From the IMG/VR virus record IMGVR_UViG_2617270992_000014: DNA of 41,104 bases, one strand, 5' to 3'. This document shows, piece by piece, positions 5,945 through 9,717 of the stretch; the first letter of the stretch is position 1; every line of letters begins with the position of its first letter. The position numbers were made by a program, and so were the translations under genes. The DNA is from a virus. Taxonomy: Duplodnaviria; Heunggongvirae; Uroviricota; Caudoviricetes. Under the pieces are notes generated by a model. The model had not been told where the DNA came from. It searched no databases and worked only from the letters and a program-made list of their open reading frames with translations.

Positions 5945-6619
5945 TCAGTCTAAGTATTGATGTATTTGTGAAACTTTACCTTTAATGGTGTAACCACCAT
6001 TCAGTTCGATGGGTTTGTAAAGCGGATTCAGTGACAACAGATAGATGTTTGGTCCGTCAATCGCAACTTTTTTTAGTGTTACGTTTGGCGTTCCTTCCAA
6101 TTGGATTAAGATTATTTTTCCCACCAGTTCTCTAATGTTACTTGAGCATGGTGTGATCAGCACGGTAGATCCGTCGGGGATGGTTGGGAGGCCGTTAGAG
6201 TTTGTCATCGCATCTCCCTCAACATGCAATAAAAAAGAGTTTTCAGCGGTTTTTGTCATGACATCAACCCAATTCTTAATACCAGGAATCTCGGTTACTG
6301 GACAACTCATATCCCAATAACCAGCCTGTTCCCACGTTAAAACGGGCAACCGGGCGATGTTGTCACTAATGTAAGGGTACTGATTCAGACGCAGATCATC
6401 GGTTTTATCGTGACAGTCCTTTCCATAAAGAATCCATTCAGGAGATTTGGAAAGCAATTTTGACAGTAGATGCAAATTCTCACCGTCAGGTTTTGAAGAG
6501 CCATTTTCCCATTTTGTTACGGATACACGAGATATGCCGATTGCTTTCGCAACCTGCTGTTGGGTTAATCCAACGTCTTTTCGACGATTCCGAATACGTT
6601 CGCTGATAGTGTTTTTCAT
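5945..6619 (-). CDS. CI-like prophage repressor (N-terminal HTH plus C-terminal LexA/S24-type autopeptidase domain); longer alternative starts at 6661 and 6718
   Basis: HTH segment LTQQQVAKAIGISRVSVTKWENG; C-terminal domain resembles the S24 peptidase fold. The start at 6619 places both operator palindromes in the intergenic region and implies a leaderless transcript as in lambda cI; the longest ORF would overlap cro. Confidence 0.8.
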   Translation of the reverse strand: MKNTISERIRNRRKDVGLTQQQVAKAIGISRVSVTKWENGSSKPDGENLHLLSKLLSKSPEWILYGKDCHDKTDDLRLNQYPYISDNIARLPVLTWEQAGYWDMSCPVTEIPGIKNWVDVMTKTAENSFLLHVEGDAMTNSNGLPTIPDGSTVLITPCSSNIRELVGKIILIQLEGTPNVTLKKVAIDGPNIYLLSLNPLYKPIELNGGYTIKGKVSQIHQYLD

Positions 6620-6633
6620 GTAACCAATGTTAC
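6620..6633. promoter_or_regulatory. Candidate right operator palindrome GTAACCAATGTTAC
   Basis: 14-bp GTAAC-N4-GTTAC inverted repeat abutting the proposed repressor start codon. Confidence 0.55.
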
Positions 6634-6667
6634 TACCAAGTGATGTTGCTATGGTTGACATTTCTAT

Positions 6668-6681
6668 GTAACTATTGTTAC
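6668..6681. promoter_or_regulatory. Candidate right operator palindrome GTAACTATTGTTAC
   Basis: Second GTAAC-N4-GTTAC palindrome 48 bp from the first; TTGACA hexamer at 6655-6660 between them; lies about 30 bp upstream of the cro start. Confidence 0.55.
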
Positions 6682-6710
6682 CCTCCCGCTCGAAATAACA
6701 GGAGAGTTTT

Positions 6711-6923
6711 ATGTTCAAAGATGATGTTCTGCGCTATTTCAAAAAAAAGCGACTAGTAGCTGAGGCTCTTGGAATTTCACATGTGGCTGTTGTGCGGTGG
6801 AAAGCAGTTATTCCCAAACTTCGCGCAATGGAACTGGATGAAATTACTAACGGTGAATTGAAATACAACCCAGAACTTTACAAGAAGCAGGATAGCACCT
6901 CGAACGAAGGAAAGAATGATTAA
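6711..6923 (+). CDS. cro: Cro-like small HTH regulator (YdaS-like)
   Basis: 70-aa ORF divergent from the repressor, AGGAG 7 nt upstream; HTH segment RLVAEALGISHVAVVRW. Confidence 0.75.
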   Translation: MFKDDVLRYFKKKRLVAEALGISHVAVVRWKAVIPKLRAMELDEITNGELKYNPELYKKQDSTSNEGKND

Positions 6924-7348
6924 TGAAAATCAAGCATGAACACATCCGCATGGCGATGAATGTCTGGGCGCATCCGGACGGTGAAAAAGTTCCGGCAGCT
7001 GAAATAACCCGGGCTTATTTTGAGCTTGGTATGACGTTCCCGGAGCTATATGACGACAGCCATCCGGAAGCCCTGGCTCGCAATACTCAGAAAATATTCC
7101 GCTGGGTGGAGAAAGACACCCCTGATGCGGTTAAAAAAATTCAGGCGTTGTTACCAGCGATCGAAAAAGCAATGCCACCTCTGCTGGTGGCCCGAATGCG
7201 CAGCCACAGTTCAGCCTATTTTCGGGAGCTGGTGGAGACGCGGGAACGACTGGTGAGAGACGCTGATGATTTTGTCGCAGTGGCGATCGCTGGTTTCAAC
7301 CAGATGAATCGTGGTGGCCCGGCGGGAAATATTGTGGTTGTGCATTGA
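6923..7348 (+). CDS. YdaT-like protein in the CII position (regulator of unknown mechanism)
   Basis: 141-aa ORF directly after cro (ATGA-type junction); size and position match the ydaS-ydaT pair of Rac-type prophages as recalled. Confidence 0.55.
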   Translation: MKIKHEHIRMAMNVWAHPDGEKVPAAEITRAYFELGMTFPELYDDSHPEALARNTQKIFRWVEKDTPDAVKKIQALLPAIEKAMPPLLVARMRSHSSAYFRELVETRERLVRDADDFVAVAIAGFNQMNRGGPAGNIVVVH

Positions 7349-7413: not shown

Positions 7414-8460
7414 GTGAGTATGGCTAACGCCTGGCTCAGATTATGGCATGACATGCCAAATGACCCTAAGTGGCGAACAATTGCCAGGGTGTCAGGGCAG
7501 CCAATCGCAACAGTGATGGCTGTGTATATCCACCTTCTGGTGAGCGCGTCACGAAATGTCACGACATGTCACGGCGTGTCACTACGTGGTCACATTGATG
7601 TCACGACGGAAGATTTAGCAAGTGCGCTTGATGTGACGGAAGAAGTAATTGATTCAATTTTACAGGCAATGCAGGGGCGGGTACTTGATGGAGATTTGAT
7701 CAGTGGATGGGAAAAACGCCAGGTACTGAAAGAGGACAATGGCAACGTTTCACAAACCGCGAAATCCCCGGCAGAGCGCAAGAGAGCGCAGCGCGAGAGG
7801 GAAAAATTACGAAAACAGAATGAGGGGGCGCGCGACGAGTCACGCATATGTCACGACATGTCACGACGAGTCACGACAGATAAAGATACAGATAAAGAAT
7901 TAAACCCCACACATAACGCGCGCGTGCGCGAGAGTGCTCCGGTCAGTGAGGCAAATGGCGTGCCGTTGCAAACATCGGAACCTGATTACCTGGAAGGCCT
8001 GAGCGAACCCATCGGGAAATTTCCGATGACCGATGGCTGGCATCCGTCGCCGGATTTTCGACGACGGGCGGCTCTGTGGGGAGTGGCTCTGCCGGAGCCG
8101 GAATTTACACCAGCTGAACTTGCCGCCTTCCGGGACTACTGGGCAGCGGAGGGTAAAGTTTTCACGCAGGTTCAGTGGGAGCAGAAATTCGCCCGTCACG
8201 TAAATCACGTCAGGGCGCAGGCTAAACCAGTCAGCAAGGGGGTAAACCATGCAGCAGCACCAGGTGGCACCGCATCACGGGCAGTTCAGGAAATTCGGGC
8301 AGCACGTGAGCAGTGGGAACGTGAAAACGGATTTATCAGCGACGGAAACGGCCTGGAAGCTGTGGGAACTCATGGGGGAGGTTTATTCGAACCGCTGGAC
8401 CCAGAAGAACGGGGCCGCACCTTCGAAGCTCTGGATTGCACAGATTGGCGCGATGACTGA
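7414..8460 (+). CDS. Replication initiator (O-like) with DnaT-like C-terminal domain; contains the replication origin iterons
   Basis: 348-aa ORF; C-terminal segment [33 protein letters not shown] resembles DnaT-like primosomal domains; two clusters of direct GTCAC(G) repeats inside the coding sequence. Confidence 0.7.
7548..7609 (+). repeat. Iteron cluster 1 (six GTCAC repeats at about 10-11 bp spacing), candidate origin of replication
   Basis: GTCAC at 7548, 7558, 7568, 7578, 7589 and 7600, seen directly in sequence. Confidence 0.7.
7839..7879 (+). repeat. Iteron cluster 2 (four GTCACG repeats at about 10-11 bp spacing) followed by an AT-rich tract
   Basis: GTCAC at 7839, 7850, 7860 and 7870, then GATAAAGATACAGATAAAGAATTAAA; resembles the iterons plus AT-rich layout of ori-lambda. 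Confidence 0.7.
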
Positions 8461-8914
8461 GCAGCAAATCCGGCAGGTCTGCCGCCAGTGCATGGACCGT
8501 TGCAGGGCAGGTGAAACATGGCCTCCGGACCTGGCTGAGTTTGTGGCGCTGATTTCGGAGAGCGGGGCAAATCCATTTGGTCTGACGGTGGATAACGTGA
8601 TGGAGGAGTACCGACGCTGGCGCAACGAGTCCTGGCGATACGACGGAAGCGATAAATACCCGTGGTCTCAGCCTGTGCTGTATCACATTTGTCTCGAGAT
8701 GCGTTCCAAGGGGATTGAGCGCCAGATGACCGAGGGGGAGTTAAAACGGCTTGCAGAACGGCAGCTGACGAAATGGGCAAAGCATGTTGGTAACGGACTG
8801 AGTGTTCCACCCGTCCGTAGGCAACTGGCAGCACCCATACGTCCTGCGGGACCAACGCCAATTGAGTTGCTGAAACAGGAATATGAACGCCGGAAAGCGG
8901 CTGGGTTTGTTTGA
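8249..8914 (+). CDS. Replication protein P-like (helicase-loader homologue); start uncertain (8249 with strong SD, or 8453)
   Basis: Segments [26 protein letters not shown] and [18 protein letters not shown] resemble lambda P as recalled. AAGGGGG sits 6 nt upstream of the ATG at 8249; ATG at 8453 overlaps the O-like stop. Confidence 0.6.
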
Positions 8915-8946
8915 GTTGAGAAGTAATTTTTACCGGGAGGAAATTT

Positions 8947-9717
8947 ATGGAGACTGTTTTTGACGCACTGAAAGCGATGGGAAAAGCCACGTCGGTAGAG
9001 CTGGCTGCGCGACTTGATATCAGTCGTGAAGAAGTACTGAACGAGCTGTGGGAACTGAAAAAGGCTGGCTTCGTTGATAAAAGCGTATACACCTGGCGTG
9101 TGGCTGGTGAAGGTGAATCCGGGGTAGCCGAAGAGCAGCCAGCACAATCTGAAGTACAGGATGTGCTAACCAGGGAGGTCGAACGAAAAGTTACCGCTGA
9201 CATGATGATTGAGTTTATCGGTCAGGAGGGCGCTAAAACGTGTGAGGAACTGGCGGGTAAGTTCGGTGTCAGCACTCGCAAGGTTGCTTCCACGCTGGCG
9301 GTAGTAACCGCAACGGGGCGGCTGGCACGCGTAAACCAGAACGGTAAATTTCGCTACTGCATGCCGGGCGAGAATTTACCAGTAAAGCCGAAAGTCGCAT
9401 CGGTAACGGAGAATGATGGTAAAGCCTTTCCTCAGCCAGCCGGCATTGCGTTACCAGTACAGGAAGCTGCAACACAGGAAGATATTAAAACAGAAACTGT
9501 AGCGGACATTGTGCAGTCGCTGCCATCGTTTACTGCAACGCGAGCTGATGATTTGATTTTGCCATCGCTGCATTTGGCAAACCGCGAACTGCGTCGGGCG
9601 AAAAATCATGTCCAGAAGTGGGAGCGTGTCTGCGCTGCGCTGCGGGAGCTGAACAGGCACCGGGATATTGTCCGACAGATTTTCGATTCCTCCAGTCGTA
9701 TTGTGTCGGAAAAGTGA
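8947..9717 (+). CDS. Hypothetical protein with two winged-helix-like segments
   Basis: 256-aa ORF with GGAGG-type SD; [31 protein letters not shown] and [24 protein letters not shown] resemble wHTH modules; function unknown. Confidence 0.5.

Follow-up and report, generated by a model that had tools for sequence, protein, structure and literature searches.

The replication initiator and helicase loader genes of a Rac-like lambdoid prophage very probably share 212 nucleotides in two reading frames

Classical work with hybrid phages led to the expectation that in phage lambda the C-terminal part of the replication initiator (O) handles the helicase loader (P). In lambda the initiator gene and then the loader gene are read from one transcript, iterons lie inside the initiator gene, and the loader belongs to the Pfam family PF06992. 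These features recur in the stretch of viral DNA analyzed here (Caudoviricetes; IMG/VR record IMGVR_UViG_2617270992_000014; 41,104 nucleotides (nt), referred to as the window), in which the end of an O-like initiator gene and the probable beginning of a P-like loader gene lie on the same 212 nt of the same strand (positions 8249-8460) in different reading frames. Lambda P itself follows a four-domain plan, with a disordered domain I (residues 1-29) ahead of a compact domain II (residues ~30-119), and O residues 156-299 have been used as the C-terminal domain added to DnaB-P (PMC12661323). Loss of residues 9-86 abolishes the function of lambda P, and plasmids carrying O together with 35 or 62 in-frame codons of P DNA are toxic (PMC3640518). 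The lambda O frame, too, stays open for some distance into P. Long same-strand, out-of-frame overlaps in viruses (overprinting) have been reviewed (PMC8227390) and surveyed (PMC8903798); they are usually tolerated by setting structure in one product over disorder in the other (PMC8227390), and annotation pipelines tend to suppress them (PMC5810103).

The predicted 221-residue loader of the window is colinear with full-length lambda P, and its disordered leader and the compact domain behind it parallel domains I and II of the lambda protein (PMC12661323). In contrast, lambda-type P loci with a different N-terminal domain (L042, L044, L045, and L046; FPAS...RRQW...ENGIT) overlap O by only 4-17 nt, compared with 212 nt here, and the window initiator has a DnaT-type domain in place of PF04492. 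The N-terminal ~90 residues of the loader are also of a different sequence type than in lambda-type proteins, with the phi80, HK639, and mEp237 loaders matching only residues 93-221. As in viral overprinting, two proteins would come from one stretch, and where one of them is structured the other is disordered and compositionally biased. The differences are that neither product is a lineage-restricted novelty lying within an older gene; each gene contributes one terminus, constraint is handed over half-way rather than being held by a single dominant frame, and the products are presumed partners.

The initiator gene extends on the plus strand from an ATG at 7420 (with a GTG upstream at 7414) to the TGA at 8458-8460 and encodes 346 amino acids (aa), as identified from the list of open reading frames (ORFs), Pfam, and PHROG. 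Within its coding sequence lies a Shine-Dalgarno (SD) sequence, AAGGGGG (8236-8242, O codons Lys-Gly-Val), with an anti-SD duplex of -11.8 kcal/mol, separated by a 6-nt spacer (TAAACC) from the ATG at 8249. This ATG opens the favored long form of the putative loader gene (8249-8914, plus strand, 221 aa, stop at 8912-8914), whose frame is open from 8246, immediately 3' of a TAA at 8243-8245. The dual-coding segment (8249-8460, plus strand) would thus specify the last 70 residues of O and, in the O+1 frame, the first 70 residues of P. These readings bear out what the original prediction had drawn from the letters alone, namely that the O frame stays open to 8460 and the P frame opens at 8249, that a strong SD with a 6-nt spacer precedes this ATG, and that the overlap measures 212 nt with about 70 codons in two frames. 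An earlier O stop, which would have removed the overlap, does not occur, and because O lacks such a stop it is read to 8460 whatever P does. Two further in-frame ATGs fall within the segment, so that candidate P products of 221, 180, and 153 aa (from 8249, 8372, and 8453, respectively) come into question. The ATG at 8372-8374 (plus strand, P Met42), which the original prediction had missed, would give 180 aa and an 89-nt overlap; it is where annotations from other genera begin their 180/181-aa form. The ATG at 8453 (P Met69) forms part of ATGACTGA (8453-8460, plus strand), which also holds the O stop; it is the RefSeq/GenBank P start, giving 153 aa and an 8-nt overlap. This junction had been taken for a classic ATGA coupling, which is incorrect, as the shared sequence is the 8 nt of ATGACTGA and the TGA at 8454-8456 lies outside the O frame. 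On the evidence given below, the final 212 bases of the initiator gene very probably serve a second time, in a frame shifted by one base, to encode the first 70 residues of the loader.

Profile searches indicate what the two genes encode. The 346-aa upstream protein contains a DnaT-type DNA-binding domain (PF17948, aa 201-268, E=2e-18), its only Pfam match, and it matches PHROG "replication initiation protein" and "primosomal protein" families along its whole length, including the tail. No match to PF04492 (Phage_rep_O) was found in this protein, and on its domain content it appears to be O-like in role without being a member of the Phage_rep_O family. It shares PF17948 with Escherichia coli DnaT, aligning to positions 81-167 of the DnaT model NF002770, but its score of 97.9 bits falls far below the equivalog cut-off of 201, and only the region of the DNA-binding domain is common to both. 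In contrast to DnaT, the window initiator is twice as long and has an N-terminal PHROG replication-initiator region, iterons in its gene, and an extra tail; these sequence comparisons set it apart from DnaT proper. The downstream protein is a member of the lambda P family, with a PF06992 match of 61.9 bits (cut-off 26) over aa 56-188. The profile of its family matches the lambda P chains 8v9t and 8v9s at E=3e-6. Alignment to P-family profiles, which the original prediction had named as a way to locate the N-terminus, placed aa 19-220 on positions 22-235 of the 236 in phrog_109 ("P-like helicase loader", E=2e-62). NCBIfam contains no model of the P protein and gives no clue to where pipelines put its start.

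The overlap was compared across 42 genome loci with P relatives. The WPP motif of the subfamily is present in 36 of them, which represent over 15 genera of Enterobacterales. These 36 were sorted into 14 lineages, defined below 70% P identity, and start signals and codons were counted over 33 loci. An initiator ORF stands in the same relative frame (P = O+1) in 34 of the 36 WPP loci, with overlaps of 149-224 nt, an O stop 22-94 nt ahead of the WPP motif (mostly 55 or 58 nt), and a P-frame ATG 240-273 nt ahead of it. The two exceptions, both from Erwinia (L032 and L039), have unrelated upstream genes and shorter P N-termini, and a locus with a WVP variant of the motif (L035) follows the same plan with a 191-nt overlap. 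The arrangement extends to three Vibrio phages with ~30% P identity, in which P again lies in the O+1 frame, counting from the first in-frame ATG gives overlaps of 194-230 nt, and the O tail carries the same motifs; their SD signals are weaker. The stretches concerned are 1501-2160 in L047 (Vibrio phage D75), 1387-2028 in L048, and 1381-2040 in L049, in whose records the annotated loader ORFs are far shorter or are lacking where the N-terminal part lies. By sequence comparison, the overlap arrangement is thus conserved from E. coli to Vibrio phages, and both frames appear to have been kept open in divergent relatives beyond chance. In the aligned relatives the conserved SD and ATG, the conservation of the P protein upstream of the internal ATGs, and the stop-free O frame all lie far beyond chance.

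The signals for the start of P distinguish sharply among the three ATGs. Mean pairing with the anti-SD sequence is -9.5 kcal/mol for the long-form ATG, -5.4 kcal/mol for the 8372-type ATG, and -2.3 kcal/mol for the 8453-type ATG, against a background over the same genes with a mean of -2.4 kcal/mol and a 5% quantile of -6.6 kcal/mol. Below this quantile fall 31 of the 33 long starts and no 8453-type start. A GGAGG-like element, which encodes a conserved Gly-Gly in O, occupies the SD position in 31 of the 33 loci. The O codon that holds the AT of the P start is NAT in 27 of 33 loci (CAT 16, AAT 9, TAT 1, GAT 1) and NAC in one, compared with a background NAT share of NAY codons of 48%; the amino acid encoded changes (His, Asn, Tyr, or Asp), yet the codon keeps the form NAT. 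The 8453-type ATG is absent from 10 of the 33 loci, and the 8372-type ATG is absent from one (L023, which has CTG). No unusual RNA structure that might gate the P start was found (fold z=-1.6). These observations point to an independent, conserved initiation signal for P inside the O gene.

The P protein is already conserved ahead of either internal ATG, beginning at residue ~35 (A35 88%, W36 88%, L38 91%, W39 100%), and residues 35-68 are conserved as protein. The codon-position analysis of homologues that the original prediction had proposed showed where the constraint lies. When pairs with less than 70% P identity are compared, the identity of synonymous O codons amounts to 0.43 in the non-overlapping part of O, 0.39 over 8252-8350, and 0.78 over 8351-8457, and the periodicity of substitutions changes from the O frame to the P frame at ~8350, from where constraint passes to P. 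In the first half of the overlap (8252-8350, plus strand) the O frame is constrained, and P residues 1-27 form a poorly conserved, predicted-disordered leader. In the second half (8351-8457, plus strand) the P frame is constrained, encoding the motif AWxLWExMxxIYxNRWxxKNGxxPSxxW, which corresponds to the first helices of the P fold, and O contributes an acidic tail, predicted to be disordered, whose frame is kept stop-free and which has a conserved Glu-Glu at 8404-8409.

The structural models give the same picture. In the AlphaFold2 model of the 221-aa P, residues 1-27 have a predicted local distance difference test score (pLDDT) below 50, followed by helices at 27-46, 48-54, 60-67, and 71-86 with pLDDT of ~80-87. 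In the model of the C-terminal 146 aa of O, the DnaT domain is confident, a helix at residues 87-102 (nt 8278-8325) has a pLDDT of ~50, and nt 8332-8457 encode no structure (pLDDT <50); this layout of helix and disorder mirrors the P model, so that the two predicted folds are complementary. The hand-over falls at ~8330-8350 in the structural and evolutionary analyses alike. Foldseek aligned the 221-aa model with full-length lambda P (9oa1_Z) over 220 columns at a probability of 1.00 and a template-modeling (TM) score of 0.47-0.49, which is only moderate because the domains are flexibly linked. On these models, the 221-aa form has a full-length, lambda P-like architecture in which a disordered N-terminal element leads into two compact helical domains and a C-terminal element (domain plan from PMC12661323). 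A 153-aa product would be without three of the helices, and a 180-aa product would begin inside the first. The earlier impression that lambda P fits the long form better holds for length and fold; in sequence, the alignment with lambda P begins only at ~residue 75. Taken together, the comparative, signal, and structural evidence supports the long P as the true form and both products as originally drawn.

Evidence that the end of O is maintained comes mainly from stop codons. No O-frame stop occurs in 8342-8422 (26 O codons) in any of the 14 lineages, whereas synonymous resampling of the P codons (n=2000) produced a stop in at least one lineage every time (0/2000 stop-free), and the same off-frame in 27-codon control windows of non-overlapping P contains stops in 7-14 of the 14 lineages, the stop rate in that off-frame being 5% per codon. 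Additionally, P Lys53 is AAG in 30 of 33 loci (background 34%), and the codon for P residue 52, which specifies varying amino acids, has G as its last base in 27 of 33; the two choices jointly retain the Glu-Glu in O. Two other treatments of the data were discarded. The naive product of O-openness probabilities over the 14 lineages (1e-10) is invalid, since any frame stays open until its own first stop is reached, and combining the values by Fisher's method gave only ~0.02; the fixed-window test against control windows took the place of this product. An apparent reduction of 17-20% at wobble positions vanished once Trp and Met columns were dropped (p=0.13). Constraint on the last ~36 residues of O, as read from the alignments, is light, amounting to an open frame, an acidic composition, and a few residues. 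Each frame is clearly constrained in its own half of the overlap, and constraint from both frames on a given site is confined to the avoidance of stops and to the Glu-Glu motif.

Several observations weigh against reading the whole segment as dual coding. In a few loci the long ATG was picked as the one with the best SD among two or three candidates, which slightly biases the SD statistic in its favor. The openness of the P frame over 8249-8350 is unsurprising given the O amino acids (~0.9 for this window; range 0.47-0.97). The 8372 ATG, kept in 32 of 33 loci with a moderate SD, makes an additional or alternative 180-aa product possible. Off-frame amino-acid identity exceeds the resampling null in the overlap (z=6.1-6.7) only moderately over the controls (-0.2 to 4.0). 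A global test for extra O-frame constraint on P wobble sites in 8351-8457 found none (0.41 versus 0.40), and neither did the wobble test without Trp and Met columns (0.598 versus 0.637, p=0.13). With no signal in either global wobble test, the support for a functional O tail comes down to the avoidance of stops and a small number of sites. Finally, the loader is annotated inconsistently, with one RefSeq copy and three GenBank phage records giving it 153 or 140 aa.

This inconsistency runs through the databases. The RefSeq copy, from E. coli, which is 98.6% identical over a 501-nt query (window 8100-8600), annotates the same initiator ORF and a 153-aa P from the equivalent of 8453 with an 8-nt overlap, as do phages Rac-SA53 and vB_Apl-pPE4, and in PPompW phages the P start lies further downstream still (140 aa). 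Forms of 180/181 aa occur in Salmonella, Citrobacter, Klebsiella, Brenneria, and Pectobacterium, and RefSeq labels those of the first three genera "replication protein P". Forms of 212-223 aa are present in a large protein collection from Escherichia, Enterobacter, Klebsiella, Salmonella, and Symbiopectobacterium, with some NCBI records at 221-223 aa. In most of the annotations examined, a shorter loader call hides the overlap, and the 153-aa call drops about half of the domain whose lambda P counterpart is essential.

That P starts at 8453 alone, coupled to O termination through ATGACTGA and with the upstream P frame as a non-coding by-product, is very unlikely. The start is annotated in the RefSeq copy and in phages Rac-SA53 and vB_Apl-pPE4, an ATG 5 nt ahead of the O stop has a geometry that can permit reinitiation, and, as noted, an open P frame over 8249-8350 is not improbable. 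Yet this ATG has no more than background SD pairing and is missing from nearly a third of the loci, conservation of P residues 35-68 and constraint at O third positions from 8350 both lie upstream of it, and the 153-aa product, lacking three confident N-terminal helices, would correspond to lambda P from ~residue 80 on, although loss of residues 9-86 abolishes lambda P function (PMC3640518). A start at 8372, with 8249-8371 untranslated in the P frame, has more in its favor, given the near-universal retention of this ATG, a moderate SD supplied by Trp-Glu codons, the 180/181-aa RefSeq proteins, and a PHROG family (phrog_33198) that starts at the 8372-type residue; as the sole start we nevertheless consider it unlikely. 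A35, W36, L38, and W39 are conserved upstream of it, and the invariant W39 TGG forces variable residues on O, so that it is the P frame that drives conservation there. A start at 8372 would furthermore cut the predicted helix 27-46, it would have no ATG in L023, and it would leave a stronger conserved SD and ATG upstream unexplained. The 8372 ATG is possibly a minor internal initiation site.

We give almost no credence to the idea that the two frames are joined into an O-P fusion, whether by a programmed +1 frameshift or through a sequencing or indel artefact. It draws on phrog_15931 (482 positions, "unknown function"), which matches the whole of O at positions 1-347 and the whole of P at 281-482, and on a few database proteins and one locus (L038) that switch between the frames. 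Against it, P comes with a conserved SD and ATG of its own right after the in-frame TAA at 8243-8245, two separate intact ORFs are present in 34 of 36 loci, the frame-switching records are sporadic and single, with other damage or signs of chimeric gene calls, and the RNA fold around the P start is unremarkable, no systematic search for slippery sites or stimulatory signals having been made. In L038 (Leclercia adecarboxylata, ~2440-2700) an indel has joined the P frame to the O frame (...TAWHLWQVMG followed by GNILEPVDAEEW...), and this locus is probably a decaying prophage or an assembly error. Chimeric or truncated proteins of the same kind are P0106, P0083, P0026, P0156, and P0160. The family phrog_15931 probably goes back to O proteins mixed with gene calls in which O and P are fused across frames.

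We therefore favor the reading that 8249-8460 is a real same-strand, out-of-frame overlap, and sequence comparison and structure models make this likely, including the reading of O to 8460, the start of P at 8249, and the relay of constraint. Ribosomes that start the initiator at 7420 would run to the TGA at 8458-8460, and other ribosomes would bind AAGGGGG (8236-8242) within O and start at the ATG at 8249, yielding a 221-aa lambda P-family protein. The two products would then divide the segment in a relay. Over 8252-8350 the initiator, with its short, conserved helix, is under selection above a variable, disordered loader leader, and over ~8350-8457 the first helices of the loader N-terminal domain are under selection above the open, disordered, acidic initiator tail with its Glu-Glu. 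The sequences and models themselves show the anatomy and its conservation, the signals for initiation, the change of constraint, and the predicted folds; the start of translation at 8249, the function of the tail, and the binding of the tail to the loader are what we infer.

The partnership proposed for the tail and the loader is suggested by the company they keep. The unit of tail plus P occurs behind four types of initiator, which carry PF17948 (DnaT), PF04492 (the lambda O type), PF07120 (DUF1376), or HTH_36/DnaD_N domains. Initiators of these differing types are those of L020, which carries PF04492, L021, L023, L024, L026, L027, and L028; in L022, L030, and L041 no recognized replication-initiator domain was found (L030 gave only a sub-threshold match to an unrelated family). 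Similarity among these initiators starts a few codons before the P ribosome-binding site, placing a mosaic junction there. At the other end, P residues 93-221 are ~50% identical to the phi80, HK639, and mEp237 loaders, which have different N-termini, a pattern that suggests recombination within P, with a boundary close to the WPP motif. Since tail and loader are joined to at least four initiator types, the tail would recruit the cognate loader, and the shared DNA would keep the partners inseparable during mosaic recombination.

A more tentative extension, which we hold to be possible rather than likely, is that these ~200 nt form an interface cassette encoding both contact surfaces, namely the C-terminal helix and acidic tail of O and the N-terminal domain of P, so that swaps of origin-binding domains among mosaic phages would never separate the pair. 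Such a cassette would predate the split between the phages of Enterobacterales and Vibrionaceae and may have been carried along by the VdhL loaders, which took the place of DciA in Vibrio chromosomes. The Vibrio-phage relatives (~30% identity, beside O-like or helix-turn-helix initiator genes) fit the description of the VdhL protein and its neighborhood (PMC11087808), and from this resemblance the three proteins are probably VdhL-type loaders. The word "overlap" is absent from the VdhL paper (PMC11087808).

Inside the initiator gene there are two clusters of iterons, each with three to four (A)TGTCACGAC repeats spaced by 10 bp, at 7546-7595 and 7838-7887 (272 bp apart), and the second cluster is followed by the A/T-rich ACAGATAAAGA, present twice (7876-7898). 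These repeats mark a candidate origin of replication within the initiator gene, an arrangement shared with lambda. The neighboring genes at 5945-7348 and 8947-9717 fit the Rac-like layout of RefSeq, with a LexA/CI-type repressor (minus strand), a Cro/CI regulator, a YdaT-family toxin, O, P, and a DUF1627 protein. The region forms the module for immunity and replication of a Rac-like lambdoid prophage. Of 5,426 complete E. coli genomes, 1,253 contain DNA nearly identical to it, and these carriers include O157:H7, O26, O103, O111, and O145 strains. An antisense ORF at 8370-9203 (minus strand, 277 aa, rich in Ser, Pro, and Ala), which spans P and the start of the next gene, was set aside as probably spurious, its frame being broken in relatives with longest open runs of 41-110 codons.

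No description of this overlap was found in the literature on overlapping genes, on ydaU/ydaV, or on contacts between lambda O and P domains. Long out-of-frame overlaps in phages are already known; this one is new and unusually well conserved. Two essential partner genes that share ~200 nt provide a clear and deeply conserved case of such an overlap. For the recoding or engineering of prophage modules of this type, it means that a synonymous change in one gene alters the other. Finally, the module offers a testable account of how cognate initiator-loader pairs may stay together through mosaic recombination.

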